Assembly (NCBI GenBank): GCA_038236135.1
Contig: JBBSTF010000005.1
Span: 19,227-83,226 of the forward strand
Source: Lysobacterales bacterium
GTDB lineage: Bacteria > Pseudomonadota > Gammaproteobacteria > Xanthomonadales > Rhodanobacteraceae
Direction of reading: 5' to 3'
DNA: 64,000 nt
The notes under the pieces were generated by a model. The model saw nothing but the letters and a program-made list of their open reading frames with translations, did no database searches and had not been told where the DNA came from. Position 1 is the first letter of the stretch, and the number at the start of each line of letters is the position of its first letter. This document shows, one piece after another, positions 22,216 to 50,364 of this stretch. The position numbers and the translations under genes are program-made.

Positions 22216-22300
22216 GCCCAGGTGGCGGAATTGGTAGACGCACTACCTTGAGGTGGTAGCGGTGAAAGCTGTAGGGGTTCGAGTCCCCTCTTGGGCACCA
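22216..22300 (+). tRNA. tRNA-Leu (GAG), integration target
   Basis: GCCCAGGTGGCGGAATTGGTAGACGCACTACCTTGAGGTGGTAGCGGTGAAAGCTGTAGGGGTTCGAGTCCCCTCTTGGGCACCA. Confidence 0.98.
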
Positions 22301-22303: not shown

Positions 22304-22425
22304 AAAGGTTTAAGGACATCCAACGAAGTCCAAAAAACACACCAAACCCCGCGTAGCAGCGGGGTTTTTTGTGCCTTTCTTGTTCTAGGCCGTCCAGCGC
22401 CGTCTATTGCAATCCACGCATGTTC

Positions 22426-22444
22426 GGGGGCATATTTGGGGGCA
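22426..22444 (+). repeat. Putative integrase arm-binding site (left)
   Basis: GGGGGCATATTTGGGGGCA, identical to 51210-51228. Confidence 0.75.
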
Positions 22445-22484
22445 TGCGAGGCATCTGGCCCGCCTCCCTGAAGGAAATGCCCCC

Positions 22485-23717
22485 ATGCCGCTGACCGACA
22501 CCGCAGTCCGAAAGGCTGCCGCACGCACCAAACCCTACAAGCTGGCCGATGGCGGGGGCATGTATCTGGAAGTGTCGCCGACCGGCGCGAAATACTGGCG
22601 CTTGAAGTACCGGCACAGCGGCAAGGAAAAGCGGCTAGCGCTTGGCGTCTATGATCGCGTCACGCTGGCAGACGCACGGACCAAGCGTGAGGATGCCCGT
22701 CGCTTGCTGGCCAAGGGCGTCGACCCCGGCGCCGCCCGCAAGCAAGCCAAACAAGACACCGCGGAAGCCGCCGCCGTCGCGTTCGATACGTTCGAAGTCA
22801 TCGCGCGCGAATGGATGGCCCGTCAGGACGTCGCGGAAGTCACCGCCAAAAAGACAAGCTGGATTTTTGAGACGTTCCTGTTCCCCGAAATTGGCAGCCG
22901 TCCCATTGCCGACATCACGGCGCGCGAGTTGCTGGACGCGCTGCGCAAGGTGGAAGAAACCGGCAAGCTGGAAACAGCCAAGCGCGCGAAGATCAAGGCG
23001 GGACAGGTGTTCCGGTTCGCCGTGGTGGAAGGCAAGGCAGCAAGCGACCCGACGGCATCGCTACGTAACGCCTTGAAGGCTCCCAAGGGCAAGCATCACG
23101 CGGCGATCACTGATCCCGCCAAGATGGGCGCGCTGCTGCGTGCCATCGACGGTTACACCGGCCAATACGTCACGCTCTCGGCGTTGAAGCTGGCACCGCT
23201 GGTATTCGTCCGACCTGGCGAATTGCGGCAAGCTGAGTGGTCGGAGTTTGATCTCGATGATGCAATCTGGCGCATACCCGGCGTGCGCATGAAAATGAAG
23301 GCCGCGCACTTGGTGCCGCTGTCGGCGCAAGCCGTCGTGATCTTGCGCGAGCTGTCCTCACTGACTGGCGATGGCCGTTTCGTATTCCCAAGCGTGCGCA
23401 CTGCATCGCGCCCGATGAGTGAAAACACCGTGACAGCCGCATTGCGCCGGCTGGGCTACACCGGCGACGAGATGACTGGCCATGGTTTCCGAAGCATGGC
23501 TGCAACTCGATTGAATGAGATGGGCTGGAATGCAGACGCCATCGAACGCCAGCTTGCCCACGCCGAAAGCAACAAGGTCCGCGACGCCTACACGTCTGCC
23601 GCGCAGTACCTGGACGAGCGCACCCGCATGATGTCCGCATGGGCGAACTATCTGGACGCTCTCAAATTAGGTGGGAACGTAGTCTCCATCGGCCGCAGCG
23701 CAACCAAACAGCGGTAG
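22485..23717 (+). CDS. P4-family tyrosine integrase
   Basis: Arm-binding N-terminus (KPYKLADGGGMYLEV..G.KYWRLKYR), FVRPGELR, HGFRSMAAT, IERQLAH, Y in AYTSAAQY. Confidence 0.96.
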   Translation: MPLTDTAVRKAAARTKPYKLADGGGMYLEVSPTGAKYWRLKYRHSGKEKRLALGVYDRVTLADARTKREDARRLLAKGVDPGAARKQAKQDTAEAAAVAFDTFEVIAREWMARQDVAEVTAKKTSWIFETFLFPEIGSRPIADITARELLDALRKVEETGKLETAKRAKIKAGQVFRFAVVEGKAASDPTASLRNALKAPKGKHHAAITDPAKMGALLRAIDGYTGQYVTLSALKLAPLVFVRPGELRQAEWSEFDLDDAIWRIPGVRMKMKAAHLVPLSAQAVVILRELSSLTGDGRFVFPSVRTASRPMSENTVTAALRRLGYTGDEMTGHGFRSMAATRLNEMGWNADAIERQLAHAESNKVRDAYTSAAQYLDERTRMMSAWANYLDALKLGGNVVSIGRSATKQR

Positions 23718-29584: not shown

Positions 29585-29925
29585 CTATTGGCCGACCCGT
29601 TCAATCAATTGCGGACCCTGATTGCGCGCGTTGCCCACAGCCTTGCCGACCGGGTGCCATGCAAGGTCAGGGAGCGGCGATGCGTGTGCGATGGCAGTCG
29701 CTAGATCGGCGTCGCCTTCCATCCAATCCCGCAACACTTCCGGCGATAGCATCAACGGCGTGCGGTCGTGAATGTCCAGCAGTCCGCCGACAGCATCCAT
29801 TGTCAAGATGGTTTACGTCTCGACTGGCTCACCGTTGCCTTGCCACCGCTCCCACATGCCGGCGAACATCAATACCGGACCGCAAGCCTCGCGCATGCAC
29901 CGCGGCTACTTCTTTCCATGGAACG
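29585..29925 (-). pseudogene. SRAP (SOS response-associated peptidase, YedK/HMCES) C-terminal remnant
   Basis: One frame reads GKK*P...PVLMFAGMWERW..EPVET*TILT..DIHDRTPLML..LAWHPVGKAVGNARNQGPQLIE; stops at 29906-29908 and 29813-29815. Confidence 0.85.
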
Positions 29926-30003
29926 GAGGCGCGACAATGTCGATATCGGATTGAGCGATTCCATTATGGAAAGGCGACCGTCGCCAAGTTAAGGCAGAAC
30001 ACC

Positions 30004-32154
30004 GTGGTCGAGGAAGTCAAGCCAGTTCGTTCCGAGGAGCAGGTGTTCCAAGCGATCCGCTTGCTCTGCGCAAGGCCAGGGTTCGTGCACGCCTTGGCAT
30101 ACATTTCTTGGACGGACAACACACTAGTGTTGGCCGACTCGGTCGACGCTAATGCGCTGGAGCTCACGTACTCGCGCGAGCGGTTGTTGAGGACTGAAGC
30201 CGCAGTCCTTCTCGGGCTGCTTGTCCAGCAACCTATTGACCTCGAACCCATCGACATCCCGACGCTGGAGTCGTACGTAGCCGAGGCCTACGGACTGATG
30301 GAGGAAGCCCACAGCACGATCAGCGCGCAGATGACCTTGGCAATGCAAGCCATGATGAGTGGGAAGAAGGCCACACATCCGTCGCAAGGCGACATGCTGC
30401 GCGAGGCTATTTTCTACGGGCCGCCCTCTGCTTACCACTTCCAATTCCTCGACTTCGCCCCTCGTCGTTACGCGAAGGATCGCGACTGGCTTGCAGCGAA
30501 CAGAGGCGTAACCATCGACCAAGGCGCAATAGTCGTTGGCGCGATTCACACTGCGCTAAACGCCCAGGTGACGGAGGCGACGAGGCTTCTCGCTGAATCG
30601 CGCGATCCCACAAGCCTGCTGCAAGCATTCATTGTGCGGCCGGCACAAATAGCCGAACGAGCGGGGTTGCATCTAGCGGAAGTCTCTGCGGTCTTCGATG
30701 CGTTCGCGCTTAAGACACGCAATGACGACTTCCAAGCCATCGACGACTACAACGACGTGTCGGTGTTCCCGCTCATACCGTTGGGCGAGGACCGATTCCT
30801 CATTTTCGATCCGATTGCGCTCAGCCAATCGCTGTATGAGTCTCCGATATTCTGGATGCGCCACACGGAATACGAAGTCGCCGCCCGCGAGCACCGAGGA
30901 GCGTTCACCGAAGAGCTGTCCTTCGATTTGCTGCGTCGCGTGTTCGGCGCCGAGCACGTGTACGCCAACGTCAAGCTAAAGCAAGGCAATACCGACGTCG
31001 ACGAGATTGATGTTCTCGTCCTTTACGGGGATCGCGCCATCGTCCTCCAAGCCAAGTCCAAAAGCCTGACCATTGCTGCACGTAAGGGCGACAGCCAGCG
31101 ACTGCAGATGGATTTTCAGGGAGCGGTGGAAGACGCGTACTCGCAAGCGTTGAGTTGCGCGGAGCATCTCGTGGCGCGCGACTGCGCTTTCGTGCTCAGC
31201 AACGGAAGCACGTTGGAGCTGTCGACGCCGATCACAGAGATCTTTCCCTTCTGCGTCATCGCTGACCACTACCCCTCGCTGAGCTTCCAAACGCGATCGA
31301 TCCTTCAGCCGAAGACGACTGACGTAATCCGCGAGCCGTTTGTCATGGATGTCTTCCTACTTGACGCTATGACCGAGATGCTGCCCACCGCGCTGCGCCT
31401 GCTCGCGTACGTCAAGCAGCGCGCAGCTTTGTTCGACCGCATTTCATCTGGGCACGAGCTGACTGTTTTGTCCTACCACCTGACCCAGAACTTAGTCTTG
31501 CCGTTAGGCGTTGATTTCATCCAACTGGCTGACGACATCGGGGTCGATCTCGATGCGGCCATGATGGTTCGCCGGATGGGCGTACATGGCCCGAATACAC
31601 CGCCGGGCATTCTTACCCGGTTCCAGGGCATGCCATTCGAGCAATTGGTTAAAACACTTGAGTACTCGGACAACGCCCCGGCGCTCGAGATTGGGTTTGT
31701 GCTGCTTTCGATGGGATCACGCACCGCCGAAACCATCGACCATTTTCTCGCGAAGTCGACCAAAGGCGCTCGTGAACAGGGCAACCTATATAACTTTAGC
31801 GTAGGCCACGAGCACTTGGGTTTGACGATACAAGTCGGTGACGCAGACGACGACGTCGGGATAGGGCAGATGAAAAGTCACTGCGTTCTCAACAAGTACG
31901 AGCGCCGGGCCGCGCAGTGGCTAGGGGCTTGGCTCGACCACTCCGGCGCACTTCGCGCCACCATCGTGCTGGACGAGCCTTGGATGAGCTCAGCGCAGTT
32001 GGAAGATGCTGTCCGTTGGCGGCAGGCCGCGCGTGCTCGGGACCGGCCTGCGAAACCTTCCGACGTTTTCGGTTCGCGCAAGCAAAGCGTCAACGAGATA
32101 TGCGCATGCGGCAGCGGAAATAAGTACAAGAAGTGCTGCATGTGGAAACGATGA
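30004..32154 (+). CDS. SEC-C motif protein with NERD/PD-(D/E)xK-like nuclease region
   Basis: C-terminal NEICACGSGNKYKKCC; central DEIDVLVLY..IVLQAKSK. Start moved to GTG 30004 because the first ~115 codons of the tracked ORF overlap the antisense SRAP remnant. Confidence 0.75.
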   Translation: MVEEVKPVRSEEQVFQAIRLLCARPGFVHALAYISWTDNTLVLADSVDANALELTYSRERLLRTEAAVLLGLLVQQPIDLEPIDIPTLESYVAEAYGLMEEAHSTISAQMTLAMQAMMSGKKATHPSQGDMLREAIFYGPPSAYHFQFLDFAPRRYAKDRDWLAANRGVTIDQGAIVVGAIHTALNAQVTEATRLLAESRDPTSLLQAFIVRPAQIAERAGLHLAEVSAVFDAFALKTRNDDFQAIDDYNDVSVFPLIPLGEDRFLIFDPIALSQSLYESPIFWMRHTEYEVAAREHRGAFTEELSFDLLRRVFGAEHVYANVKLKQGNTDVDEIDVLVLYGDRAIVLQAKSKSLTIAARKGDSQRLQMDFQGAVEDAYSQALSCAEHLVARDCAFVLSNGSTLELSTPITEIFPFCVIADHYPSLSFQTRSILQPKTTDVIREPFVMDVFLLDAMTEMLPTALRLLAYVKQRAALFDRISSGHELTVLSYHLTQNLVLPLGVDFIQLADDIGVDLDAAMMVRRMGVHGPNTPPGILTRFQGMPFEQLVKTLEYSDNAPALEIGFVLLSMGSRTAETIDHFLAKSTKGAREQGNLYNFSVGHEHLGLTIQVGDADDDVGIGQMKSHCVLNKYERRAAQWLGAWLDHSGALRATIVLDEPWMSSAQLEDAVRWRQAARARDRPAKPSDVFGSRKQSVNEICACGSGNKYKKCCMWKR

Positions 32155-34162: not shown

Positions 34163-37100
34163 ATGACGGACCAGTTCTTTGAACGGCCCATCCTCAATTC
34201 TCCTTATGCGATCCCGTCGCAGCACTGGGAGCTGGACGGTGACGGTCAGCCGACCCAGGAGATTCTCCAGTCTCGGCGCAAAGCCGACTTCATCACTCCG
34301 ATACCCAAGCCGCGTAGGCGTACTGCCGGTCAGGCATCGCTGGTCTTCGACGAAGGCATAGGGCTTTCAACGAAGGAACAAGCCTACGCCCACACCGCCG
34401 TCATCAATGCGGTTCGTCAGGAAGTGGATGCTTGGCGTCGCCTCCCGGCAGGCCAGTGGCGGGTAACGCCGGAAACCGCTCGCCTGCTCGATCATTGGCG
34501 CAACTATCCGTTCACCGGCATCCGCCCCTTCTTCTGCCAGGTCGAAGCCGTCGAGACCGCGATCTGGCTGATTGAAGTTGCACCGCAACTGGGCAAGTCC
34601 GGTGAGCGCTTCCTTGAACATTTGGCCAAGTCGAACAACGACGCCAACCCGGAGCTGATGCGTCTGGCTCTCAAGCTGGCGACGGGCGCGGGCAAGACCA
34701 CCGTCATGGCCATGCTGATCGCTTGGCAAACCGTCAACGCCGTGCGGCATCCTAATAGCCGAAAATTCACCCGCGGCTTCCTCATCGTCGCTCCGGGTCT
34801 GACCATCAAGGATCGCCTGCGCGTCCTTCAGCCCAACGATCCCGACAGCTACTACGCCAGTCGCGACATCGTCCCGCGCGACATGCTCGCGGATATTGCG
34901 CGCGCCAAGATCGTCATCACCAACTATCACGCCTTCAAGCTGCGCGAATGCCTTGAGCTTTCCAAGGGCGGGCGCCGACTCCTTCAGGGTCGCGAAGGCG
35001 AAGAGCTGCAGACCCTGGAAACCGAAGGGCAGATGCTGCAACGGGTCATGCCCGAGTTGATGGGCATGAAGCACATCCTTGCCATCAACGATGAAGCCCA
35101 CCATTGCTATCGCGAGAAGCCGCTCGACGCCGACGATGAGCAAGACCTCAAGGGTGACGACAAGAAGGAAGCCGAAGAAAACAACGAAGCCGCGCGGCTT
35201 TGGATTTCTGGCCTTGAAGCGGTAAACCGCAAGCTCGGCATCTCCCGTGTCATGGACCTGTCGGCCACGCCGTTCTTCTTGAGCGGTTCCGGCTATGCCG
35301 AAGGCACCTTGTTCCCATGGACGATGAGCGATTTCTCGCTGATGGACGCCATAGAGTGCGGCATCGTCAAGCTGCCTCGCGTTCCGATCGCCGACAACGA
35401 TCCCAGTCGCGCCGACGAAATGCCAAAGTACCGCGAGCTTTGGAAACACATCGGCAAGAAGATGCCGAAGAAGGGGCGTGGGAAGGCCAGCCAACTCGAT
35501 CCACTCAGTATCCCCGGTTTGCTGCAGACCGCGCTCGACGCTCTGTACGGCCATTACGCGAAAACGTTCGAGCTATGGGAGAAGGCCGGCATCAAGGTGC
35601 CGCCGTGCTTCATCGTGGTGTGCAACAACACATCCACGTCCAAGCTGGTTTACGACTTCATCTCCGGCTTTCATCGCCAGAACGAGGACGGCAGCAGCCA
35701 GTTGGAAAACGGCCGCCTCGAACTGTTCCGCAACTTTGACGAACACGGCAATCCGCTGGCGCGTCCCAACACTCTGCTCATCGACAGCGAGCAATTGGAA
35801 TCCGGCGATGCGCTGGACAGTAATTTCCGCGCCATGGCCGACGACGAGATTGAGCGATTTCGCCGCGAGATCATCAAACGCACCAACGACCCCCAGCAGG
35901 CCGAGAACATTTCCGATCAGGAGCTGCTGCGCGAGGTGATGAACACGGTCGGCAAGCATGGCCGGCTCGGTGAATCGATTCGCTGCGTCGTTTCCGTATC
36001 AATGCTGACCGAAGGCTGGGACGCGAACACCGTCACCCATGTACTGGGTGTCCGCGCGTTTGGCACGCAGTTGCTGTGCGAGCAGGTTATCGGCCGCGCA
36101 TTGCGCCGGCAGTCCTACGAACTCAACGAAGAAGGCCTGTTCGACGTCGAGTACGCCGACGTGCTGGGCATTCCGTTCGACTTCACTGCCAAGCCGGTCG
36201 TGGCCGCGCCGCAAAAGCCGCGCGAGACTGTACAAGTGAAAGCCGTTCGTCCTGTGCGCGACGCGCTGGAAATCACCTTCCCGCGTGTGCAGGGCTATCG
36301 CGTCGAACTCCCGGAGGAACGGCTCACAGCGGAATTCAACGACGATTCCATCCTGGTGCTGACGCCTGATCTCGTCGGCCCGTCCGAAACCCGCAATGCC
36401 GGCATCATTGGTGAGAGCGCCGAGCTCACGTTGCAGCACCTAGGCGACATGCGCCCGTCATCAGTCGTTTTCCACCTAACCAAGCGGCTGATCGAAACCA
36501 AGTGGCGCGATCCGGGTGAACAACCCAAGCTGCACCTGTTCGGCCAGCTCAAGCGCATCGCCAAGGAATGGCTGGATACCTGCCTGCAATGCAAGGGCGG
36601 CACCTATCCGGCGCAATTGCTGTATCAGGAGCTGACCGACATCGCCTGCGAGCGCATCACCGCTGGCATCACCCGATCGCTGCTAGGCAAGCGCCCGGTG
36701 AAGGCCGTTCTTGATCCGTACAATCCGACCGGTTCTACCACAAACGTCAATTTCAACACTTCGCGCGAAGACCGCTGGGAAACGCTGGGACCGCCACCAA
36801 AATGCCACGTCAATTGGATCATCCTCGATAGCGGCTGGGAAGGTGAATTCTGCCGCGTCGCAGAAGCGCATCCCAAAGTGCTCGCGTACGTGAAGAACCA
36901 CAGTCTTGGGCTGGAAGTGCCGTATCGCTTCGGGTCCGTCGCGCGCCGCTACTTTCCCGACTTCATCGTTCGCATCGACGACGGCTACGGCCCCGATGAT
37001 CCGCTCAACCTGATCGTCGAGATCAAGGGCTATCGCCGCGAAGACGCCAAGGAAAAGAAGTCGACGATGGATACCTACTGGATACCCGGCGTCAACCATC

Positions 37101-37240
37101 TCGGCAGCCACGGTCGCTGGGCGTTCGTCGAGTTCGGCGACCTTTACGAAATGCAGGACGACTTCGCCAAAAAGGTCCAGGCCGAGTTCGACAAGATGGT
37201 TTGCGAAGCATCCACCGCCGAAAAGGAAGTTACCGCATGA
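34163..37240 (+). CDS. Type III restriction endonuclease Res subunit
   Basis: PFFCQVEA, KLATGAGKT, INDEAHHCY, DLSATPF, SMLTEGWDA, EQVIGRALRR, C-terminal PDFIV..VEIKG nuclease. Confidence 0.93.
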   Translation: MTDQFFERPILNSPYAIPSQHWELDGDGQPTQEILQSRRKADFITPIPKPRRRTAGQASLVFDEGIGLSTKEQAYAHTAVINAVRQEVDAWRRLPAGQWRVTPETARLLDHWRNYPFTGIRPFFCQVEAVETAIWLIEVAPQLGKSGERFLEHLAKSNNDANPELMRLALKLATGAGKTTVMAMLIAWQTVNAVRHPNSRKFTRGFLIVAPGLTIKDRLRVLQPNDPDSYYASRDIVPRDMLADIARAKIVITNYHAFKLRECLELSKGGRRLLQGREGEELQTLETEGQMLQRVMPELMGMKHILAINDEAHHCYREKPLDADDEQDLKGDDKKEAEENNEAARLWISGLEAVNRKLGISRVMDLSATPFFLSGSGYAEGTLFPWTMSDFSLMDAIECGIVKLPRVPIADNDPSRADEMPKYRELWKHIGKKMPKKGRGKASQLDPLSIPGLLQTALDALYGHYAKTFELWEKAGIKVPPCFIVVCNNTSTSKLVYDFISGFHRQNEDGSSQLENGRLELFRNFDEHGNPLARPNTLLIDSEQLESGDALDSNFRAMADDEIERFRREIIKRTNDPQQAENISDQELLREVMNTVGKHGRLGESIRCVVSVSMLTEGWDANTVTHVLGVRAFGTQLLCEQVIGRALRRQSYELNEEGLFDVEYADVLGIPFDFTAKPVVAAPQKPRETVQVKAVRPVRDALEITFPRVQGYRVELPEERLTAEFNDDSILVLTPDLVGPSETRNAGIIGESAELTLQHLGDMRPSSVVFHLTKRLIETKWRDPGEQPKLHLFGQLKRIAKEWLDTCLQCKGGTYPAQLLYQELTDIACERITAGITRSLLGKRPVKAVLDPYNPTGSTTNVNFNTSREDRWETLGPPPKCHVNWIILDSGWEGEFCRVAEAHPKVLAYVKNHSLGLEVPYRFGSVARRYFPDFIVRIDDGYGPDDPLNLIVEIKGYRREDAKEKKSTMDTYWIPGVNHLGSHGRWAFVEFGDLYEMQDDFAKKVQAEFDKMVCEASTAEKEVTA

Positions 37241-37390
37241 AAACGGAACGGATCCAGTCCTTCACTAGCACCTTTGCAGCCCACGCCGTTTTCGATCCTT
37301 TTGTTGACGTTAACAAAACCATCGGGATGCCTAAGGGCGTTCGTGGCTTTACGGACCATTTTCCCGGCGTCAGGAAAATGGTCGCTAAGA
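37237..37390 (+). pseudogene. Internally deleted dinD-like remnant
   Basis: MKTERIQSFTSTFAAHA joined directly to DPFVDVNKTIGMPKG and DHFPGVRKMV, which resemble separated DinD segments. ATGA overlap with res. Confidence 0.6.
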
Positions 37391-37480
37391 TCCGAAAAAC
37401 CGTTGATGAATCATGCGTTTGCAACGCAATTGCGTTGAAACTAGAAGCCACGGCGTCGAGCACCAACATTAGCGACACTA

Positions 37481-37509
37481 TTGAAACGGCACTCAACCCG
37501 CGCTACTGT
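37481..37509 (+). promoter_or_regulatory. Sigma70 promoter upstream of the structured RNA and NYN gene
   Basis: TTGAAA (37481-37486), 17-nt spacer, TACTGT (37504-37509). The -10 lies in the palindrome TACTG-TTTG-CAGTA (37504-37517). Confidence 0.7.
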
Positions 37510-37511
37510 TT

Positions 37512-37590
37512 GCAGTACATCCGCCCCTTGGCAGTACGCCCGCTCGATCATCCTGAGCGCTGGCCGACCCCTCGGGGCTTTCTTTTTTCT
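37512..37590 (+). ncRNA. Candidate structured RNA/leader ending in a terminator-like U tract
   Basis: CCCC(37524-27)/GGGG(37574-77), TTGGC(37528-32)/GCCGA(37563-67), CGCTC(37541-45)/GAGCG(37555-59), then CTTTCTTTTTT. GCAGTAC is repeated at 37512 and 37531. Confidence 0.55.
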
Positions 37591-37634
37591 GGCACCACAG
37601 ATTCTTTTGCGAAGCGCTCCGCTCGGAGACTCGC

Positions 37635-38510
37635 ATGAGCCATCGCCGCATCGCCATCCTCATCGACGGCGGGTTTTTCCTGAAGCGGCTGCCTCGATTG
37701 GTCAACCCGGAGCTATGCGAAACGCCCGAAGGCATTGCAGCCTACGTTCGACATCTGTGCCGCAACCACGTCAAGCATCTCACCGGATGCAGCAACACCG
37801 ACTGGGCGCAGTACGTCTACCGCATCTTCTACTACGACGCGGTTCCCTATGACGGCAAGGCACATAACCCGATCGACAATCGCTCGATCGACTTTGGAAA
37901 ATCCGATGTCGCCGTCCAACGACTCGCATTGTTCGACTGTCTCCGCCGCCAGCGCAAAGTCGCCTTGCGTCTCGGCAAGGTAAACCGGGACCACGACTGG
38001 GCGATCAAGCCGGAACTGACGAAGCTGCTCCTGCGTAGTCGCTCGGCACTCGATGTGCTCGACCGATTGACGCCCGGCGGCGGAGAAGAAACCAAGGGCG
38101 CAAGCCAGGATGCCATGTCAATGCAACTTTCGGCGGACGAGCTGCGCAGCCTTCGGGAGTTTCGCGCCATTTGGCAGCAGCTGGACCGTTCCTCCGTACA
38201 GCTGGGCCTTCGTCAAAAAGGCGTCGACATGCGAATTGGTGTCGACATCGCGTCACTCGCACTCAAGAAACAGGCCGACACGCTGATCTTGGTAGCGGGT
38301 GACAGCGATTTCGTACCGGCGGCCAAGCTGGCGCGCCGGGAAGGCATCGATTTCATCCTCGATCCACTATGGCAACACATCAACGCCGACCTGTTCGAGC
38401 ACATCGATGGCCTGCATTCGGGTATCCCCAAGCGTGCCGAACAACGTGCCGAACAACGTGCCGCCACCGCAGGCAATGGCCACCTCGCCGCCCAGATAAA
38501 GACGGAATAA
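37635..38510 (+). CDS. NYN (LabA/DUF88, PIN-fold) ribonuclease
   Basis: AILIDGGFF, YRIFYYDA, QKGVDMRIGVDI, LVAGDSDFVPAAKLARREG; acidic catalytic residues intact; GGAGA RBS. Confidence 0.92.
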   Translation: MSHRRIAILIDGGFFLKRLPRLVNPELCETPEGIAAYVRHLCRNHVKHLTGCSNTDWAQYVYRIFYYDAVPYDGKAHNPIDNRSIDFGKSDVAVQRLALFDCLRRQRKVALRLGKVNRDHDWAIKPELTKLLLRSRSALDVLDRLTPGGGEETKGASQDAMSMQLSADELRSLREFRAIWQQLDRSSVQLGLRQKGVDMRIGVDIASLALKKQADTLILVAGDSDFVPAAKLARREGIDFILDPLWQHINADLFEHIDGLHSGIPKRAEQRAEQRAATAGNGHLAAQIKTE

Positions 38511-38514
38511 TTCA

Positions 38515-41385
38515 ATGGCCAAGAAGCCAACCACCCCCAAAACCATCGCCGCGCTCAACCATGCCGAGGCGAAGCGCAAGAACATTCCCACGGTGGAACA
38601 CCAGTCGGTGATGCAGAAGGCTGACCAGGCGCCGGTGAAGGTGGCGTATGCGCGTAGCGCGCAGGGGCTGGATGACGAGAAGCAGCAGCGCAATCGCGAC
38701 CTCGACCCGCAACTGGTCTGGCGCGGCAAGGACCAGCAGGACTGGTCTGACCTGGTTGTCAACGCGCCGCCGCTCTACATCCAGGAAAAGGTGAAGCCCA
38801 AGTTCCTGATCGACGACCTGCTTCGACAGTCGAAGAAGCACCCGTCTACGGGTTCGGCGAAAGAAGACGCGGCAGGCTACAACCAACCTGACATGTTCGG
38901 CGACTTCAACGGCCTGCCTGAAGGTGCCGACAAAACCGAGTTCTACCAGCACGAGGGCCACTGGCAGAACCGCATGATCCTGGGTGATTCACTACAGGTG
39001 ATGGCCAGCCTGGCCGAGCGCGAAGGCCTGCGCGGGCAGGTGCAATGCATTTACTTCGATCCGCCCTACGGCATCAAATTCAACTCCAACTTCCAGTGGT
39101 CCACCACCAGCCGTGACGTGAAGGACGGCAACGCCGACCACATCACCCGCGAGCCGGAACAGGTCAAGGCGTTCCGCGACACCTGGCGCGACGGCATCCA
39201 TTCCTACCTGACCTACCTGCGCGATCGCTTGACCGTGGCACGCGACCTGTTGACCGAGTCCGGCTCGATATTTGTGCAGATTGGCGATGAGAACGTGCAC
39301 CGGGTGCGGGCGGTTTTGGACGAGGTATTTGGTGATGCGAATTTTGCTGCACAAATTGCTTTCATTAAGACTGCTGCTGTCAATAGTCCTCAAGCTAGAA
39401 CGAATGTAATTGGCGATACCTTCGACTACGTTCTTTGGTATGCAAAAGACCTATCAAGGGCAAAATATCGGCAACCTCTTCGGTCAAAAGTGCTCGGGGG
39501 TAACAGCGAATACAAGAGGATTGAGCTTGCGAATGGTAGCCGGCGTCCTTTGTCGGCGAGGGAGGTGGGTGGCGGAGAGCAGGAGGCCGATTCTAACGTG
39601 CGCTTTTACCGGCAAGACAATATTGTCTCCACCGGATTTTCGGAATCGCTGTCGGTCCCATTTCAAGCTTTCGGAAATTCCTATCGCCCAAACGCTAGTT
39701 CTCATTGGAAGACGACGATTCGCGGCATGGAACGCTTACGTCGTGCCTCCCGCCTTGAACCGCGAGGCAAACAACTTTCGTACGTGCGATTTTTTCATGA
39801 TTTCGCTGTCACGCCGATCGGCAACTCTTGGGACGATGTGGTTCTTAGCAGTCGCGCCGAGGACAAAGTCTATGTAGTTCAGACCAGCTCGAAAGTCGTC
39901 CAGCGCTGTATTTTGATGGCCACCGATCCCGGCGATCTCGTGCTCGACCCGACCTGCGGCTCCGGCACTACCGCCTACGTGGCAGAACAATGGGGCCGCC
40001 GCTGGATCACCCTCGACACGTCACGCGTAGCACTCGCCTTGGCCCGCGCACGCATCATGGGCGCGCGCTATCCGTACTACCTGCTCGCCGACTCGGCTGA
40101 AGGCCAGCGCAAGGAAGCCGAAGTCACCCGCAGCGTTCCCTCGTCGAAGGCTACCTACGGCAACATCGCCCACGGGTTCGTCTACGAGCGTGTGCCGCAC
40201 ATTACGCTGAAGTCGATCGCCAACAACACCGAGATCGACGTGATTTGGGACAAGTTCCAGCAGACGCTGGAGCCGTTGCGCGAGCAGATGAATAGTGCAC
40301 TCGGCAAGACGTGGGAAGAGTGGGAAATTCCCCGAGAGGCCGATGCCAAGTGGCCGGGGGAAGCTACTCGACTGCACGCCGACTGGTGGCAGCAGCGCAT
40401 CGCGCGGCAGAAAGAAATCGACGCTTCCATCGCCGCCAAAGCCGATTCCGAATACCTCTACGACAAACCCTACGACGACAAAAAGAAGGTTCGCGTCGCC
40501 GGCCCGTTCACGGTTGAAAGCCTTTCGCCGCATCGCGTGCTGGGCGTCGACGAGAACGACGAACTGATCGATGGGGTGGGCGAAGACAAGGCCGGCTATT
40601 CCGACGAACGCGATTTCGTGCAGATGATCCTGGCCACGCTGAAGGTGTCGGGCGTACAGCAGGCGCACAAGGAAGACCGCATCGAGTTCACCGCGCTCAC
40701 ACCGTGGCCGGGCGATCTGGTCTGCGCCGAAGGGCGATATCTCGAAGGCGACAAGGAACGCCACGCCGCTATCTTCATCGGCCCCGAGTTCGGCACTGTC
40801 TCCCGCGTCGACCTGGTAGCCGCCGCGCGCGAGGCCGGCGATGCCGACTTCGACGTGCTGATCACCTGCGCCTTCAACTACGACGCCATGTCATCTGAGT
40901 TCGACAAGCTCGGCCGCATCCCGGTGCTTAAGTCGCGCATGAACGCCGACCTGCACATGGCCGAAGACTTGAAGAACACCGGCAAGGGCAACCTGTTCGT
41001 GATCTTCGGGGAACCCGACATTGACATCCTCGACGCCGGCCCCGACGGCTACAGCGGGCAGGTTCGCGTGAAGGTCAACGGCGTCGACGTGTTCCACCCC
41101 AACACCGGCGAAGTACGCAGCGACGGTGCCGACGGGATCGCCTGCTGGTTCATCGACACTGACTACAACGAAGAATCGTTCTTCGTCCGCCACGCCTACT
41201 TCCTCGGCGCCAACGACCCGTACAAGGCACTCAAGACCACCCTGAAGGCCGAGATCAACGAAGAAGCCTGGGCCACCCTAAACAGCGACACCTCCCGCCC
41301 CTTCGACAAACCCACCAGCGGCCGCATCGCCGTCAAGGTGATCAACCACCTCGGCGACGAGGTGATGAAGGTGTTCCGCATTTAG
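38515..41385 (+). CDS. Type III R-M modification methyltransferase Mod
   Basis: YFDPPYG, VLDPTCGSGTT (beta-class order); lower-GC target-recognition segment at ~39330-39900. Confidence 0.93.
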   Translation: MAKKPTTPKTIAALNHAEAKRKNIPTVEHQSVMQKADQAPVKVAYARSAQGLDDEKQQRNRDLDPQLVWRGKDQQDWSDLVVNAPPLYIQEKVKPKFLIDDLLRQSKKHPSTGSAKEDAAGYNQPDMFGDFNGLPEGADKTEFYQHEGHWQNRMILGDSLQVMASLAEREGLRGQVQCIYFDPPYGIKFNSNFQWSTTSRDVKDGNADHITREPEQVKAFRDTWRDGIHSYLTYLRDRLTVARDLLTESGSIFVQIGDENVHRVRAVLDEVFGDANFAAQIAFIKTAAVNSPQARTNVIGDTFDYVLWYAKDLSRAKYRQPLRSKVLGGNSEYKRIELANGSRRPLSAREVGGGEQEADSNVRFYRQDNIVSTGFSESLSVPFQAFGNSYRPNASSHWKTTIRGMERLRRASRLEPRGKQLSYVRFFHDFAVTPIGNSWDDVVLSSRAEDKVYVVQTSSKVVQRCILMATDPGDLVLDPTCGSGTTAYVAEQWGRRWITLDTSRVALALARARIMGARYPYYLLADSAEGQRKEAEVTRSVPSSKATYGNIAHGFVYERVPHITLKSIANNTEIDVIWDKFQQTLEPLREQMNSALGKTWEEWEIPREADAKWPGEATRLHADWWQQRIARQKEIDASIAAKADSEYLYDKPYDDKKKVRVAGPFTVESLSPHRVLGVDENDELIDGVGEDKAGYSDERDFVQMILATLKVSGVQQAHKEDRIEFTALTPWPGDLVCAEGRYLEGDKERHAAIFIGPEFGTVSRVDLVAAAREAGDADFDVLITCAFNYDAMSSEFDKLGRIPVLKSRMNADLHMAEDLKNTGKGNLFVIFGEPDIDILDAGPDGYSGQVRVKVNGVDVFHPNTGEVRSDGADGIACWFIDTDYNEESFFVRHAYFLGANDPYKALKTTLKAEINEEAWATLNSDTSRPFDKPTSGRIAVKVINHLGDEVMKVFRI
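41341..41378 (+). repeat. mod 3'-end segment, copy 1
   Basis: ATCAACCACCTCGGCGACGAGGTGATGAAGGTGTTCCG; 37/38 identical to 46548-46585. Confidence 0.95.
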
Positions 41386-41405
41386 CTCACTGAAGGTTCT
41401 CTGAA

Positions 41406-43196
41406 ATGAAGATCACCCCAACCTCGCTTACGCTCAACCAGTTGTTTGGTTCATCGAACGAACAGTATGTGATCCCGTCGTACCAGCGACGCTATTCTTG
41501 GAGAGAGCGTCAGGTTTATGAGTTGCTGGACGACATCGACCTACTCGAAGGCTCGGATACCCACCTACTGGGAAACATCGTTTGTCTAACAGGAAGTCAC
41601 GCTGCAGGACTGAACAAGCTTGACCTCGTCGATGGTCAGCAGCGTCTTACCACGATATCTATTCTGTTCGAATGCATCCGCCAGCATCTAATGGAACAAG
41701 AGAACACTGAACTTGCCTCCGACCTTGGTCGATTGCTGCACGCAAAAACTATTGATGGAAAAGAGCTGCCTAAGGTTTTGTTAGATTCGATTGATTCAAA
41801 AGAATTTGCGCGTTTGGTGAAAGCCGACGATCAAGGGGATTTTGTCAACGAGAATCTATTTAACGCATTTACAATAGTACGCGATTGGATAAGTGAGCAA
41901 GAGCTGAAAGATTTAATAGAGTTCCTCTACCGACTTCAGAATCAGGCGTTGCTAATTCGTCTTGACGTAAGTGATGCGAAGGACGCGTTCAAATTGTTTG
42001 AGACAATCAACAATCGTGGTCTGCGGTTGAGTCCCAGCGATATAATAAAGAACTTTTTACTCGGAAATGCTGCTAGATTCGGTGAGGATTCGCTGAAAGA
42101 CGCGTGTGACGCTTGGGCGAAACTGGTGCTGCACCTTGATAGAACTAGCTCGGACAACTTTTTTAGACATTTTCTTACTGCGCGCACTCAACGGCGTGTA
42201 ACCGCAGCGAAAGTCGTGCCAATCTTCAAGGCGCTTTTCATGCGTGAGGTGCGCGAAGCCGTCGACCTTCCGGATAGACATTACTATTTTGACGAAGACG
42301 ATGTCGATACCGACAACGATGAGAACGATGGCGAGACTTCTCTCGATCGAGAGTCAAGTGAAGAAGAGAAGTCTGAACACCCCCAGTTAAGCTTCAAGTC
42401 ATTTCTGAAAAAGCTTGTCGAGAGCGCGAAAATCTATGGACGGCTACTCCTGGCCAGCACTGGAAATAAGTCCGCAGACAGACATTTGCGAAACCTGCAT
42501 ATGATCAAGGCAGCTCAAACCTTTGGCTATTTGATGCATTTAAAGGTCGGAGGGTGTGACGAAAAGCACTTCCTTACCATTTTGAAGTTGACCGAAGCGT
42601 TCGTACTCCGGCGTCATATTTGCCGCGAGCGCAGCAACGACACAGAGACGTTGTTCGCGAGACTCTGTGCCGTCAATCCGAAGAATCCAGTTCCCGATAC
42701 AAGAGTCGCTTACCGGGCATCTTGTCCTTCAGATGAAAAATTCCGCGAAGAATTCGCAAATGTCATGTTTACCTCAAATATTATTGATCGCGCGCGGTAC
42801 TGTTTGGAATCGATCGAGATAGCGAAGCATGGTAAATATGTTGAACTCCAGGTTCTCGGCACAGATCTAGTACATGTCGAACACATTATTCCTAAGAAGA
42901 TTAAGACGATAAAGGCGAAGGAGGAGTTCGGGGATTGGGTGACCTATTTAGGAGAGAAATCTATCCTCCATCATCCAAAATATTTGTCACGCATAGGGAA
43001 CTTGACGCTATTCTCTGGAAAGCTAAATATTAGTGCTTCAAATAATCCTTTTAGCGGAAAGCGACCAGCCTATCGAGAGTCATCAATATTGATGACGCAG
43101 GAGATAGGGAAAATGCAGAATTTCCGTTTCAAGCAAGTCGAACAAAGATCCAAAGACCTTGCTGATTCGGCGGTAGAGCTATGGCCAGTGCCTTGA
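41406..43196 (+). CDS. DUF262 + DUF1524 protein (GmrSD-type modification-dependent restriction)
   Basis: IPSYQRRYSW, VDGQQRLTT, FETINNRGLRL; C-terminal VEHIIP..IGNLTL..N. Visibly AT-rich. Confidence 0.9.
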   Translation: MKITPTSLTLNQLFGSSNEQYVIPSYQRRYSWRERQVYELLDDIDLLEGSDTHLLGNIVCLTGSHAAGLNKLDLVDGQQRLTTISILFECIRQHLMEQENTELASDLGRLLHAKTIDGKELPKVLLDSIDSKEFARLVKADDQGDFVNENLFNAFTIVRDWISEQELKDLIEFLYRLQNQALLIRLDVSDAKDAFKLFETINNRGLRLSPSDIIKNFLLGNAARFGEDSLKDACDAWAKLVLHLDRTSSDNFFRHFLTARTQRRVTAAKVVPIFKALFMREVREAVDLPDRHYYFDEDDVDTDNDENDGETSLDRESSEEEKSEHPQLSFKSFLKKLVESAKIYGRLLLASTGNKSADRHLRNLHMIKAAQTFGYLMHLKVGGCDEKHFLTILKLTEAFVLRRHICRERSNDTETLFARLCAVNPKNPVPDTRVAYRASCPSDEKFREEFANVMFTSNIIDRARYCLESIEIAKHGKYVELQVLGTDLVHVEHIIPKKIKTIKAKEEFGDWVTYLGEKSILHHPKYLSRIGNLTLFSGKLNISASNNPFSGKRPAYRESSILMTQEIGKMQNFRFKQVEQRSKDLADSAVELWPVP

Positions 43197-43243
43197 CGGT
43201 CGATGTCGCTGATCGGCGATGAGGTGATGATGATGTCTGAGAA

Positions 43244-44390: not shown

Positions 44391-45092
44391 GTGGAGGAAA
44401 AAACGATCATTTGTTTGGCGAAGTCACGCAAGCACCGTGGATCGTGCGTCGCGGGTCGACAACTTGAGGACGGCGGAATCGGCGGCTGGGTAAGGCCGGT
44501 CAGTCCATCCCGTGGTGAGGGGTTGAGACCTGGGCAGATGACCTGTAGTGATGGTTCTGAAGTCGAGCTGTTGGACATCGTCAGCATTCCCCTACTACGT
44601 GCAGTGCCGGCTGGCTATCAGAGCGAAAATTACCTTGTGGACGTGGGGGCCCGGTGGAATCGAGTGGGACGGGCGCCTTGGACGATGCTGCTTGAAGCTG
44701 CCGACGTTTATGACGACGCGTTCTGGCATGACTATGGGAACACCTTTCATGGTGTGCGGGACCGCGTACCGGAATCCGAAACCGCTACCCTCAAACGGTC
44801 ACTGCAAATGATTTCTGTCCCGCGCTTGCGGATCGTGGTGAGTTCAGAACGGCAGTACATGTCCCTGATTCCAAGGCGGAAGATCCGCGCAGAATTCATC
44901 TATGAAGGCGCACGTTTTCGATTGGCGGTTACGGACCCTGTCGTTGAAAAGAAATGCCTTTCGCAAAAAGACAGACACTACCAAGTTGAGACGGCAATGC
45001 TTTGCGTTAGCGTGGGCGAACCGTTCAAAGGCGCCGCGTATCGGCTGGTCGCCGCGGTGATTACGCCCCGTCGGTGTGAGGTGCGGACGTGA
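44391..45092 (+). CDS. Dual-OB-fold-like protein
   Basis: IICLAKSRKHRGSCVAG..GWVRPV..LLDIV.IP..QSENY; RKIRAEF.Y....LAVTDP; CVSVGEPF..YRLVAAVI. Confidence 0.7.
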   Translation: MEEKTIICLAKSRKHRGSCVAGRQLEDGGIGGWVRPVSPSRGEGLRPGQMTCSDGSEVELLDIVSIPLLRAVPAGYQSENYLVDVGARWNRVGRAPWTMLLEAADVYDDAFWHDYGNTFHGVRDRVPESETATLKRSLQMISVPRLRIVVSSERQYMSLIPRRKIRAEFIYEGARFRLAVTDPVVEKKCLSQKDRHYQVETAMLCVSVGEPFKGAAYRLVAAVITPRRCEVRT

Positions 45093-45715
45093 GCGTGCAG
45101 ATTTTCAGTGTTGGACATTCGAACTACAACGTCGAGACGTTCATTTCGATCCTTAAGGCCAACAAGATTACGGCAATTGCCGATGTCCGTTCAGCACCGT
45201 TCAGTCGGTTCAATCCTCAGTTCAACAAACACGAGATCAAGAAGTCCCTTGCGTCCAACGGGATTCGATACGTGTTCCTTGGCGCGGAGCTTGGCGCGAG
45301 GAGCAGCGATCCATCTTGCTACGTCGATGGAAAGGTGCAGTACGACCGCCTAGCCAAGACCCTGGAGTTCGCTGCCGGCATCGCGCGCGTGATGGATGGC
45401 GCGAAGACCCACCGCGTCGCACTCATGTGTGCGGAAAAAGAGCCGCTGGATTGCCACCGTACGATCTTGGTCGCTCGTGAGCTTGTTGATAGAGGAGTTG
45501 AGGTGGGGCACATACTCGCTGACGCGAGTGTAGAGCCGCATGAGCAAACGATAGCGCGGCTGTTGGACATGTTGGGCATGTCTGCGCACGACATGTTTCG
45601 CACGCCCGAACAAATTGTGGATGATGCTTACAGGCAACAAGGCATCCGTATCGCGTATCAGGAAAGCACTACCGGTGCGACTGCGGGTGACGGCGAAACT
45701 GGAGAGGTCGAATGA
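45089..45715 (+). CDS. DUF488 family protein A
   Basis: IFSVGHSN, ADVRSAPFSR, LGAELGAR, ALMCAEKEPLDCHR; GTGA overlap. Confidence 0.9.
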   Translation: MSVQIFSVGHSNYNVETFISILKANKITAIADVRSAPFSRFNPQFNKHEIKKSLASNGIRYVFLGAELGARSSDPSCYVDGKVQYDRLAKTLEFAAGIARVMDGAKTHRVALMCAEKEPLDCHRTILVARELVDRGVEVGHILADASVEPHEQTIARLLDMLGMSAHDMFRTPEQIVDDAYRQQGIRIAYQESTTGATAGDGETGEVE

Positions 45716-48285: not shown

Positions 48286-50364
48286 ATGGAGTTCCGCATT
48301 GCCGACACTTTCACCGACAGCTTGGTAAGGCTGACCGGCGACGAGCAGAAGTCGGTGAAGACCACGGCGTTCGACCTGCAGATCAATCCTGCGAACCCAG
48401 GCATGCAGTTGCACAAGCTGGATCGAGCCAAAGACCAGAACTTCTGGTCAGTGCGGGTAAGCCGTGATATCCGCCTGATCGTGCACAAGACTGCGGCCAG
48501 CCTTTTGCTCTGTTACGTCGATCACCATGACGACGCGTACGCCTGGGCCGAGCGTCGGAAGCTGGAAACCCACCCGAAAACCGGCGCTGCGCAGTTGGTG
48601 GAGATTCGGGAGCGCGTAGAGGAAATCGCAATTCCGGTCTATGTGCAGGCCACGCTACCGGGTCTTGAGAAGCCGTTGCTGTTCACCGACTACAGCAATG
48701 ACCAGTTGCTGGGTTATGGGGTGCCGGTCGAATGGTTGAACGACGTCAAGGCAGCCAATGAAGACAGTCTGCTGGAGATCGCCGAGCACCTTCCTGCCGA
48801 GGCTGCCGAGGCGCTGTTGGAACTGGCTACGGGTGGAACGCCTGCGGTAACCGTCGCAGCGCCAAAGGGTGTCGACCCGTTCGAGCATCCCGATGCGCAG
48901 CGCCGCTTCCGCACGATGACCGATGTCGAGGAATTGCAACGCGCGCTGGAATTTCCGTGGGAGAAGTGGACGATCTTCCTGCACCCGGCGCAGCGACAGT
49001 GGGTAGAGCGCGACTACAGCGGACCAGCTCGCGTTTCGGGTTCCGCCGGCACCGGAAAGACTATCGTCGCGCTGCATCGCGCCGTGCACCTCGCAAAGAG
49101 CAACCCGGATGCTCGCGTGTTGCTAAGCACGTTTTCCAGGAACTTGGCGAACGCCCTGCGGACCAAATTGTTTCGGCTGGTTTCGAACCAGCCCACGCTG
49201 GCCGAACGCATCGATGTCGACACGATGGATGCCGTTGGCGTGCGACTCTACGAAAGGCAGTTCGGGAAACCGCAGATCGCGTCCCGCGACGAGATTGCAA
49301 CGCTGCTGAATCACGCGGCCGCAAATGTGGACGGGTTGAAGTTCAGTCCCGGCTTCCTGCTAGCCGAATGGCAGGAGGTAGTCGATCCGTGGCAGATAGA
49401 TAGTTGGGAGGAGTATCGCGATGTTCGCCGCCTCGGCCGCAAGACGCGCCTGCCTGAAGCCCAGCGTGCCTTGTTGTGGCAGGTGTTCGATACGGTGCGC
49501 GAGGCGCTACGAGCCAAAGGCAAGACCACCGTGGCGGCAATATTCACCAAACTCTGCGGAGCGATGCGCGAGAGAAAGCGGCCGCCGTACGATTTCGTAA
49601 TAGTCGACGAGGCGCAGGACATTGGTGTCGCTCAGTTGCGCTTCCTGTCCGCGCTGGGTGGAAGCGAGTCCAACGCCCTGTTTTTTGCGGGTGACTTGGG
49701 TCAGCGCATCTTCGAGCAACCATTTTCGTGGAAGTCGCAAGGCGTCGACATACGAGGTCGCTCGCGCACGCTGCACATCAACTACCGCACCTCGCATCAG
49801 ATTCGAGCGCAGGCAGATCGCCTGCTGGACCCGGAGGTTTCTGACGTTGACGGCAATGTTGAGACTCGCGCTGGCACGGTCTCGGTATTCAACGGTGAGC
49901 CACCCGTGATACGCAACTTCGCGACCCCCGAGTTGGAGTCTCAGGCCGTCGGAAGCTGGCTAGCCAAGTTGATGGAAGCGGGTATCCCCCCAAGTGAAGT
50001 GGGTGTGTTCGTACGATCGGACAACGAGATTCCGCGCGCGCTTGCGGCGGTATCGACAGCCGGCTTTCCGGCCAGGGTCTTTAGCGAGCGGACATCCGGT
50101 GAAGAAATTGGTGTCTGCGTATCCACCATGCACATGGCGAAAGGCATGGAGTTCCGCGTGGTTGCCGTCATGGCCTGCGACGACGAGGTGCTGCCACTGC
50201 AAGCACGCATCGAATCGGTCACTGACGAGTCCGAACTTGCCGAGGTGTATGCAACGGAGCGGCACCTGCTTTACGTGGCCTGCACCCGCGCCCGCGATCA
50301 CCTACACATTTCAGCCGTGGCACCAGCTTCGGAATTTCTTGACGACTTGGTCGCGACACGTTGA
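48286..50364 (+). CDS. SF1 (UvrD-like) helicase with N-terminal RelE/ParE-like domain
   Basis: N-terminal LHKL..FWSVRVSRDIRLIV; GSAGTGKT, IVDEAQD, GDLGQRI, NYRT, AKGMEF, LYVACTRAR. Confidence 0.88.
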   Translation: MEFRIADTFTDSLVRLTGDEQKSVKTTAFDLQINPANPGMQLHKLDRAKDQNFWSVRVSRDIRLIVHKTAASLLLCYVDHHDDAYAWAERRKLETHPKTGAAQLVEIRERVEEIAIPVYVQATLPGLEKPLLFTDYSNDQLLGYGVPVEWLNDVKAANEDSLLEIAEHLPAEAAEALLELATGGTPAVTVAAPKGVDPFEHPDAQRRFRTMTDVEELQRALEFPWEKWTIFLHPAQRQWVERDYSGPARVSGSAGTGKTIVALHRAVHLAKSNPDARVLLSTFSRNLANALRTKLFRLVSNQPTLAERIDVDTMDAVGVRLYERQFGKPQIASRDEIATLLNHAAANVDGLKFSPGFLLAEWQEVVDPWQIDSWEEYRDVRRLGRKTRLPEAQRALLWQVFDTVREALRAKGKTTVAAIFTKLCGAMRERKRPPYDFVIVDEAQDIGVAQLRFLSALGGSESNALFFAGDLGQRIFEQPFSWKSQGVDIRGRSRTLHINYRTSHQIRAQADRLLDPEVSDVDGNVETRAGTVSVFNGEPPVIRNFATPELESQAVGSWLAKLMEAGIPPSEVGVFVRSDNEIPRALAAVSTAGFPARVFSERTSGEEIGVCVSTMHMAKGMEFRVVAVMACDDEVLPLQARIESVTDESELAEVYATERHLLYVACTRARDHLHISAVAPASEFLDDLVATR

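Follow-up and report, generated by a model that had tools for sequence, protein, structure and literature searches.

We analysed a 64,000-nt stretch of DNA from a Lysobacterales bacterium (assembly GCA_038236135.1, contig JBBSTF010000005.1, positions 19,227-83,226, forward strand), hereafter called the window, in which a gene for an NYN-domain protein lies between the res and mod genes of a type III-like restriction-modification (R-M) system and is preceded by a short hairpin RNA. By comparing this locus with its relatives, we found that the RNA is a discrete conserved structured element with its own promoter and intrinsic terminator and an obligate partner of the NYN gene, and that RNA and NYN gene together form an autonomous two-part module. 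An earlier note, made from the letters of the window alone, had taken the pair for a candidate RNA-antitoxin system; we give the reading as a new type III-like pair of an RNA antitoxin and an RNase an even chance of being right.

A conserved structured RNA in front of NYN genes

Homologous loci were collected in a scan taking one genome per species, which yielded 80 loci, and the RNA was found just upstream of the NYN gene in all 79 of those with upstream DNA, across about ten phyla. A covariance model recognised 76 of these copies and three diverged ones were recognised by eye, and the 80th locus had no upstream DNA. The signal consists of a strikingly conserved stretch of about 76 nt with compensatory changes, situated within the 150 nt before the NYN ATG. 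It always lies on the plus strand relative to the NYN gene, with just one copy at each locus according to the covariance model. The model was built from an alignment of 31 copies (MAFFT/RNAalifold), which gave a consensus of 14 base pairs, six of which covary. In the 80-row alignment fitted to this model, 96.2% of the base-pair cells are paired and 14 of 14 pairs show changes on both sides, with double changes in 166 cells compared with 41 in column shuffles and 19-27 in slid registers. The check for covariation upstream of NYN homologues, which the earlier note had proposed, came out in favour of a conserved structure, with compensatory changes in all 14 pairs. The closing helix, P1, changes on both sides at nine of nine positions in the 80 sequences; its two central positions form Watson-Crick pairs in about 20-31 of them and are mismatched elsewhere. 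The pairs of the inner P2/P3 helix show 11-36 double changes each, and the pair of alignment columns 28/56 occurs as GC (17), UA (7) and AU (2), the pair 42/54 as UA (22) and CG (7).

In 57 of 77 loci, 10-13 nt separate P1 from the end of the best -35/-10 pair, which is often near consensus (TTGACA-17-TAnnnT). The ten nucleotides past P1 have a mean T fraction of 0.75 against a background of 0.20, and at least six of the ten are T in 73 of the 77 loci. The length of the hairpin varies from 51 to 87 nt, many stand-alone relatives carrying an extra hairpin inserted at the apical loop of P2/P3, and the 3' end of P1 lies a median of 27 nt before the NYN start codon. No conserved helix competing with the terminator was seen in the consensus, and only about 6 nt separate the inferred transcription start from P1. 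Rfam 15 gave no match at E<=1 between positions 36500 and 39000 of the window and nothing at the RNA site in five further loci, and our literature search found no account of an RNA partner of NYN proteins or of the BPTD_3080 systems to which the R-M genes of the window belong. The covariance model misses the diverged RNAs ahead of the NYN genes of an E. coli phage and of Campylobacter plasmids (31-34% identity), which were recognised by eye only.

Within the 64-kb window, the model has its sole match at 37515-37590 (87.6 bits, E 4e-28). The parts of the element and the gene behind it are as follows.

37481-37486, + strand: -35 box TTGAAA, read from the sequence, in the same register as the TTGAC[AG]-type -35 boxes of homologous loci
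37504-37509, + strand: -10 box TACTGT, matching the consensus at 3 of 6 positions, 17-nt spacer from the -35 box, ending 13 nt before P1
37517-37588, + strand: predicted small RNA of about 72 nt (5' tail ACAUCC, long hairpin, U-tract), from covariance model and consensus structure
37523-37531, + strand: 5' strand of P1, GCCCCUUGG, pairing with 37570-37578, with two central non-canonical positions
37532-37537, + strand: 5' side of the internal loop, CAGUAC, with AGUA nearly invariant (columns A19, G20, T21, A22)
37538-37559, + strand: P2/P3 helix, GC(C)CGCUC with GAGCG, 37538-37545 pairing with 37555-37564, with compensatory changes
37563-37578, + strand: 3' strands, namely GC (P2), loop CGACC and CC..GGGGC (P1), from consensus structure and pair counts
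37579-37588, + strand: U-tract UUUCUUUUUU directly after P1, forming with it the intrinsic terminator
37625-37628, + strand: Shine-Dalgarno sequence GGAG, 6 nt ahead of the NYN ATG (37635)
37635-38510, + strand: gene for the NYN-domain (PIN-like) protein of 291 aa, Pfam PF01936 at 38.6 bits (cutoff 24.2)

Judging by the sequence, transcription probably starts near 37516-37518. The two central P1 positions are U-U or U-C in the window, the 3' side of the internal loop is CGACC (37565-37569), whose A is invariant and whose G is near-invariant, and the apical loop is GAUCAUCCU (37546-37554). The AGUA/GA internal loop presumably belongs to the bulged-G motifs (loop E, sarcin-ricin type), whose consensus it fits. 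The GC-rich helix GCCCC/GGGGC, followed at once by the U-tract, has the form of an intrinsic terminator. The features of this one sequence alone amount to no more than chance, and it is the comparison that makes the element real: a promoter scan of the window did not call the site, whose -10 box has only the three matches, a terminator scan did not call the hairpin because of its internal loops, and the z-score of the single-sequence RNA fold is weak (-1.06).

What the earlier note had read from these letters stands in large part. Both promoter boxes (TTGAAA-17-TACTGT) lie where it had placed them and their register is conserved in homologues; it had called the promoter good, and the -10 box has 3 of 6 consensus positions. 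Two of its nested stems, CCCC/GGGG (37524-37527 with 37574-37577) and CGCTC/GAGCG (37541-37545 with 37555-37559), belong to the conserved structure together with the unpaired AGTAC (37533-37537). A third stem, TTGGC/GCCGA, had to be given up: 80% of its cells can pair, only two covary, and it is incompatible with the pairs 25/61 and 17/68, which do covary. The repeated GCAGTAC is present (37512-37518 and 37531-37537, 19 nt apart) and its second copy is the conserved internal loop, but the first is specific to the window, and the repeat is not supported as a functional element. The same applies to a TACTG-N4-CAGTA palindrome proposed as an operator, which is window-specific and not conserved in homologues. 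The U-rich tail (37579-37588) recurs in the homologues, and the ribosome-binding site followed by an NYN gene with intact acidic residues was read correctly (GGAG, ATG at 37635, PF01936, invariant Asp).

Two features of the adjoining DNA may be recorded here. An imperfect direct repeat of 16 nt (81% identity; TTTGCAGTACATCCGC at 37509-37524 and TTGGCAGTACGCCCGC at 37528-37543) spans the inferred start and the P1/loop region and is not conserved in homologues; Tandem Repeats Finder detected no tandem repeat array in 37200-37700. Between the res stop codon and the RNA promoter lie three hairpins or palindromes (37293-37324, 37349-37388 and 37419-37440), none of them followed by a U-tract, and the core of the second recurs between res and RNA in two related loci, L007 and L061 (28-29 nt, about 89% identity).

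The protein encoded behind the RNA has at least 7985 homologous protein clusters. Its PF01936 match is limited to residues 189-239, but D11, D198, D223 and D225 are invariant in 21 homologues of 60-72% identity to the window protein, as is an N-terminal ILIDGG motif. Pfam and PADLOC scans returned NYN models only and no ToxN/AbiQ, CptN or TenpN family, the match to the HEC-09 model being weak (E 9e-4). When the PDB was searched with a profile, only 2QIP matched, and marginally so (E 0.68). With this LabA/DUF88-type NYN protein (VPA0982) the window protein has the C-terminal core GVD...GDSDF in common, and the PF01936 threshold is exceeded, but the two are very distant, and the window family has a variable insert of about 60 aa and the obligate upstream RNA. 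The assignment as an NYN nuclease is indirect and appears reasonable.

An autonomous module on mobile elements and in a res-mod junction

Some of the RNA-bearing loci, from Chloroflexota, Bacteroidota, Planctomycetota, Acidobacteriota, Verrucomicrobiota and others, encode NYN homologues of just 40-46% identity and have no res or mod gene nearby. These stand-alone loci have no neighbouring gene family in common and no conserved neighbouring open reading frame (ORF), their neighbours being housekeeping genes unrelated to one another, for instance those for SecA, a class I aminoacyl-tRNA synthetase (tRNA-synt_1), a TonB receptor, a GGDEF-EAL protein and a PNKP RNA ligase. At none of the NYN loci compared was there a conserved protein partner or protein antitoxin, which agrees with the statement of the earlier note that no protein antitoxin is adjacent. 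In the last of the neighbourhoods just named (L013:2763-5846), RNA and NYN gene stand directly downstream of the PNKP-type polynucleotide kinase-phosphatase/ligase, an RNA-repair enzyme.

Mobile elements and defence loci are a recurrent setting of the module. NYN homologues are found on conjugative Campylobacter plasmids, on Xanthomonas plasmids and on a Thermus megaplasmid. In the P2-like Burkholderia phage phiE202, where the RNA reaches 55.9 bits, the module adjoins a BrnT/A toxin-antitoxin pair and the integrase. The lambdoid E. coli phage ev099 (L202, 2871-3855) carries its NYN gene between cI and N, in the position of rexAB in lambda, preceded by TTGACG-17-TAGATT, a diverged hairpin of about 70 nt and a run of seven T, as seen by eye. 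Of 5426 complete E. coli genomes, 275 contain this ev099 segment, O121:H19 Shiga toxin-producing E. coli among them, and the NYN protein is matched in 48 records of Stx2a-converting phages, which refers to the protein match alone and not to gene order. In a search with a gapped 21-base pattern, the motif was found in ten IMG/VR contigs. A plain 14-mer scan of viral contigs was discarded as giving chance matches: the covariance model found the motif in none of the 80 loci so collected, the only two hits, at 20.4 and 18.2 bits, both being short fragments of low score.

The RNA also exists as orphan copies, which have a promoter and a terminator of their own and no NYN gene downstream, at L022:7006-7090, L291:10907-10980 (the same element as L286:754-827) and L288:4229-4300. 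Those of L286, L291 and L288 adjoin prophage integrases, and the L291 copy immediately follows an Abi_2-like gene. Either the decay of former modules or phage-borne RNA-only mimics could account for the orphans, and their existence suggests that the RNA can act in trans. A C4 antisense RNA with its a1/b1 targets, as in the immunity of P1/P7-type phages, was noticed about 5.5 kb from RNA and NYN gene of Pseudomonas wadenswilerensis (L058:11519-11678) and suggests a prophage context there.

In the window, the gene order is res, a gap of 394 nt, the NYN-domain gene, mod and a GmrSD gene, all on the plus strand. The genes flanking the module are the following.

34163-37240, + strand: res subunit with helicase and endonuclease, BPTD_3080 family (NCBIfam NF046055 at 1370.9 bits, cutoff 800; Pfam ResIII)
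38515-41385, + strand: type III Mod methyltransferase (PADLOC MTase_III at 1535 bits; Pfam N6_N4_Mtase)
41406-43196, + strand: GmrSD-type (HEC-06-like) type IV restriction gene (Pfam GmrSD_N and GmrSD_C; PADLOC HEC-06 at 248.7 bits)

With a Res equivalog and a type III Mod, res and mod constitute a type III-like R-M system of the BPTD_3080 type. The mod gene starts 4 nt past the NYN stop codon and hence downstream of the RNA terminator, so that it must be transcribed through this terminator. The same res and mod genes flank the NYN gene in about 30 of the 80 NYN loci, the gap between res and NYN always being at least 130 nt. The reverse view was obtained from a metagenome scan anchored on the Res C-terminus, which gave another 80 loci (L204-L283) of 73-80% identity, in 71 of which both the end of res and the start of mod could be placed. 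In 34 of these 71 loci mod follows 8-81 nt past res, and only two carry RNA and NYN gene. The remaining junctions hold inserts of 0.1-3.7 kb, which encode Fic/DOC, GmrSD, a cytidine deaminase fusion, Bro-N, ORF6N, an S8 peptidase, an IS200-like transposase or unknown genes. Two NYN subfamilies, of more than 50% and of about 42% identity to the window protein, use the same slot (e.g., L284). The module is thus optional, exchangeable cargo in a res-mod junction hotspot. An NYN protein acting as an integral third R-M subunit was considered and rejected, as most sister res-mod operons have none. The proposal that the module serves as a back-up to the surrounding R-M system has to be refined in view of the mere two of 71 relatives that carry it and of its occurrence where there is no R-M system.

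Some side observations concern the island around these genes. The GC content is 0.42-0.50 across the GmrSD gene (41400-43200), which suggests separate acquisition, and 0.47-0.53 in the middle of mod (39200-39800), probably reflecting a swapped target-recognition domain. The R-M cluster lies on an island integrated at a tRNA-Leu gene, with the tRNA-Leu (22216-22300) and an integrase (22407-23717) marking its start. Further island genes encode a DUF927 protein, an NERD+SEC-C protein, a DuOB+DUF488 pair and a UvrD-like helicase (spans noted: 29659-32154, 44391-45715 and 48286-50364); a similar UvrD-like helicase is also found downstream of mod in 11 related loci.

A possible RNA antitoxin and competing explanations

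According to the reading as an RNA-antitoxin pair, the sigma70 promoter (37481-37509) would start transcription about 5-6 nt before the conserved hairpin, and P1 together with the U-tract would act as an intrinsic terminator. Because the closing helix and the U-tract terminate, most transcripts would end as a discrete RNA of about 72 nt (37517-37588), and the NYN gene, as well as mod in this locus, would be reached by read-through transcripts only. The 5' tail is too short for an antiterminator, so that folding of the RNA would equal termination. The small RNA would be produced in excess over the NYN mRNA and serve as a specific ligand of the NYN protein, recognised via the AGUA/GA internal loop and an AUYC-containing tail and loop. 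In the bound state it would keep the nuclease inactive, like the RNA antitoxin of type III toxin-antitoxin systems. If the supply or the integrity of the RNA failed, by phage shut-off of host transcription or by loss of the element, free NYN protein would cleave cellular or phage RNA, resulting in abortive infection or addiction. The binding of RNA and NYN protein, the inhibition of the nuclease, the toxicity of the NYN protein and the trigger are all steps that we infer. A layout of toxI, terminator and toxN that sets the ratio of the products in the same manner is known (PMC3401426, PMC5086642), and RNA antitoxins that are not repeats, and whose toxins have no relation to ToxN, exist in AvcID (PMC10511110) and AbiF/RCd22 (10.1101/2025.04.15.648962).

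Going further, and with slightly less than even confidence, we suppose that the module represents a very widespread RNA-antitoxin (type III-like) family for abortive infection or addiction, with at least about 8000 protein clusters in about ten phyla, in which a loop-E-type RNA in excess would cage a PIN-like RNase. More speculatively, the RNA could be a substrate mimic and the NYN protein a ribosome-targeting toxin like VapC20, given the similarity of the loop AGUAC...GAC(C) to the sarcin-ricin loop of 23S rRNA.

Several points weigh against an RNA antitoxin. A hairpin so compact and rich in GC may be stable and not labile, and would then fit classical antitoxin logic poorly, and the RNA is present in a single copy instead of a repeat array processed by the toxin. 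HEC-09, which is a different NYN protein, gave no phage protection in the sole published test (10.1101/2024.01.29.577857). Searching the PDB by Foldseek with an AlphaFold2 (AF2) model of the protein (predicted local distance difference test, pLDDT, 75.4) returned only noise (template-modelling score, TM, <0.3) and no informative structural neighbour; therefore, the nuclease assignment rests on the partial Pfam match and the conserved Asp residues. The pairing counts of the 80-row alignment are somewhat inflated by its having been fitted to the covariance model, although the independent MAFFT/RNAalifold analysis agrees. Finally, autoregulation would equally yield a conserved leader before an RNase gene.

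Such autoregulation is the main rival explanation, although we consider it unlikely. The RNA would be a cis-acting leader or attenuator, and the NYN protein would bind or cleave the hairpin to set its own level, and here also that of mod, as known for rne, rnc and pnp, with no toxin-antitoxin relation. RNase genes commonly have conserved autoregulatory leaders, which counts for this view, as does the invariable position of the RNA in cis, on the same strand and close before the start codon (median 27 nt). In the R-M loci, mod begins within a few nucleotides of the NYN stop codon, and the element necessarily gates its transcription. However, the terminator is formed by the conserved structure itself, whose 5' tail of about 6 nt leaves no room for an antiterminator fold, while a dedicated near-consensus promoter sits right at the 5' end of the RNA. 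The orphan RNAs, with promoter and terminator but no downstream NYN gene, also argue against a leader, as does the distribution over plasmids, prophages and defence slots, which is typical of conflict systems and not of housekeeping RNases.

Less probable still is a ribonucleoprotein in which the RNA is a required subunit of the NYN protein, as a scaffold, an activator or a decoy displaced by a phage factor, and not its inhibitor. The obligate co-occurrence of both partners would suit such a cofactor or sensor, and the high conservation of the unpaired nucleotides is consistent with a specific protein interface. The RNA cannot be a guide, as its sequence is not variable, and an excess of RNA set by a terminator fits the stoichiometry of an inhibitor better.

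A riboswitch, in which a small molecule stabilises P1 as the terminator and thereby switches NYN off, would show the same order of promoter, conserved structure, terminator and gene, and likewise conserved unpaired nucleotides in its loops. We regard it as very improbable, since the element is tied to a single protein family without a metabolic link, has no separate expression platform and matches no riboswitch of Rfam, and since the AGUA/GA loop is probably the signature of an S-turn docking protein or RNA and not of a ligand pocket. The idea that there is no RNA element, the 133-codon ORF at 37237-37638 being a real gene or the hairpin merely the res terminator, is effectively excluded: the ORF is open and has ATGA overlaps with the res stop and the NYN start, but it has no Pfam, NCBIfam or PADLOC match, its tblastn similarity is confined to residues of about 90-123, which are the RNA itself, with the N-terminal part not conserved, the element lengths differ by non-multiples of three, the helix substitutions are compensatory and the GC content dips to 0.49 there, while the RNA precedes NYN genes also where there is no res gene, and in about half of the sister R-M loci that were sampled mod follows res at 8-81 nt without any such element.

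Relation to known systems and implications

The RNA-antitoxin reading draws on the likeness to ToxIN, CptIN and TenpIN. These systems consist of a constitutive promoter, an antitoxin RNA, a Rho-independent terminator and an endoribonuclease gene on the same strand, an order also found here, and like the module they have no protein antitoxin and occur on plasmids, phages and in defence loci, where they act by abortive infection. The earlier note had recognised this layout together with a toxin foreign to those families, and both observations hold, the layout being conserved over 77 loci and NYN models being the only ones to match. The toxin here is an NYN (PIN-like) protein whereas theirs have the ToxN/AbiQ fold, and their antitoxins are tandem repeats of 36-45 nt cut by the toxin, in contrast to one hairpin RNA of about 72 nt with a loop-E-like internal loop, whose own closing helix is the terminator.

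In spirit, the module is closest to two recently described non-repeat systems, AbiF/RCd22 (the abiF RNA motif) and AvcID. There, a structured non-coding RNA encoded ahead of the toxic effector binds the protein directly and so neutralises it, and both systems, which are found on prophages or mobile elements, are counted among the type III-like ones (10.1101/2025.04.15.648962; PMC10511110). Their effectors are different, namely a HEPN Abi_2 protein and a dCMP/dCTP deaminase, their RNAs are also unrelated, AvcID has no predicted terminator between its RNA and toxin gene, and an interaction of RNA and NYN protein is what we propose here. The leaders of rne (5' untranslated region), rnc and pnp are comparable as conserved structured RNAs directly upstream of a ribonuclease gene and are recognised by the gene's own product, but they are 5' untranslated regions without an integral intrinsic terminator or a dedicated promoter at the first nucleotide of the element, and they belong to vertically inherited housekeeping genes. 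A parallel of another kind is offered by the 'embedded' defence genes of Payne et al. (10.1101/2024.01.29.577857), small nuclease genes nested in multi-gene defence operons, which include the NYN candidate HEC-09 and the GmrSD protein HEC-06. In the window, the module between res and mod and the HEC-06-like GmrSD gene after mod correspond to this pattern, but the host is a type III-like R-M system instead of Hma, BREX, DISARM or type I R-M, and no RNA partner was reported for HEC-09 (10.1101/2024.01.29.577857).

The RNA constitutes a new, well-supported structured RNA family absent from Rfam, and in one family of type III-like R-M systems the junction of res and mod emerges as a hotspot for exchangeable defence cargo. 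The copy in the immunity region of lambdoid prophages is a candidate superinfection-exclusion gene, and since prophage versions occur in 275 of 5426 complete E. coli genomes, the hypothesis can be put to a direct test. Should the RNA prove to be the antidote or regulator of the NYN protein, the module would be a large addition to the few systems of protein toxin and RNA antitoxin, with a nuclease of unrelated fold and an RNA that is minimal and free of repeats, and thousands of genes annotated just as 'NYN domain-containing protein' would gain a function.

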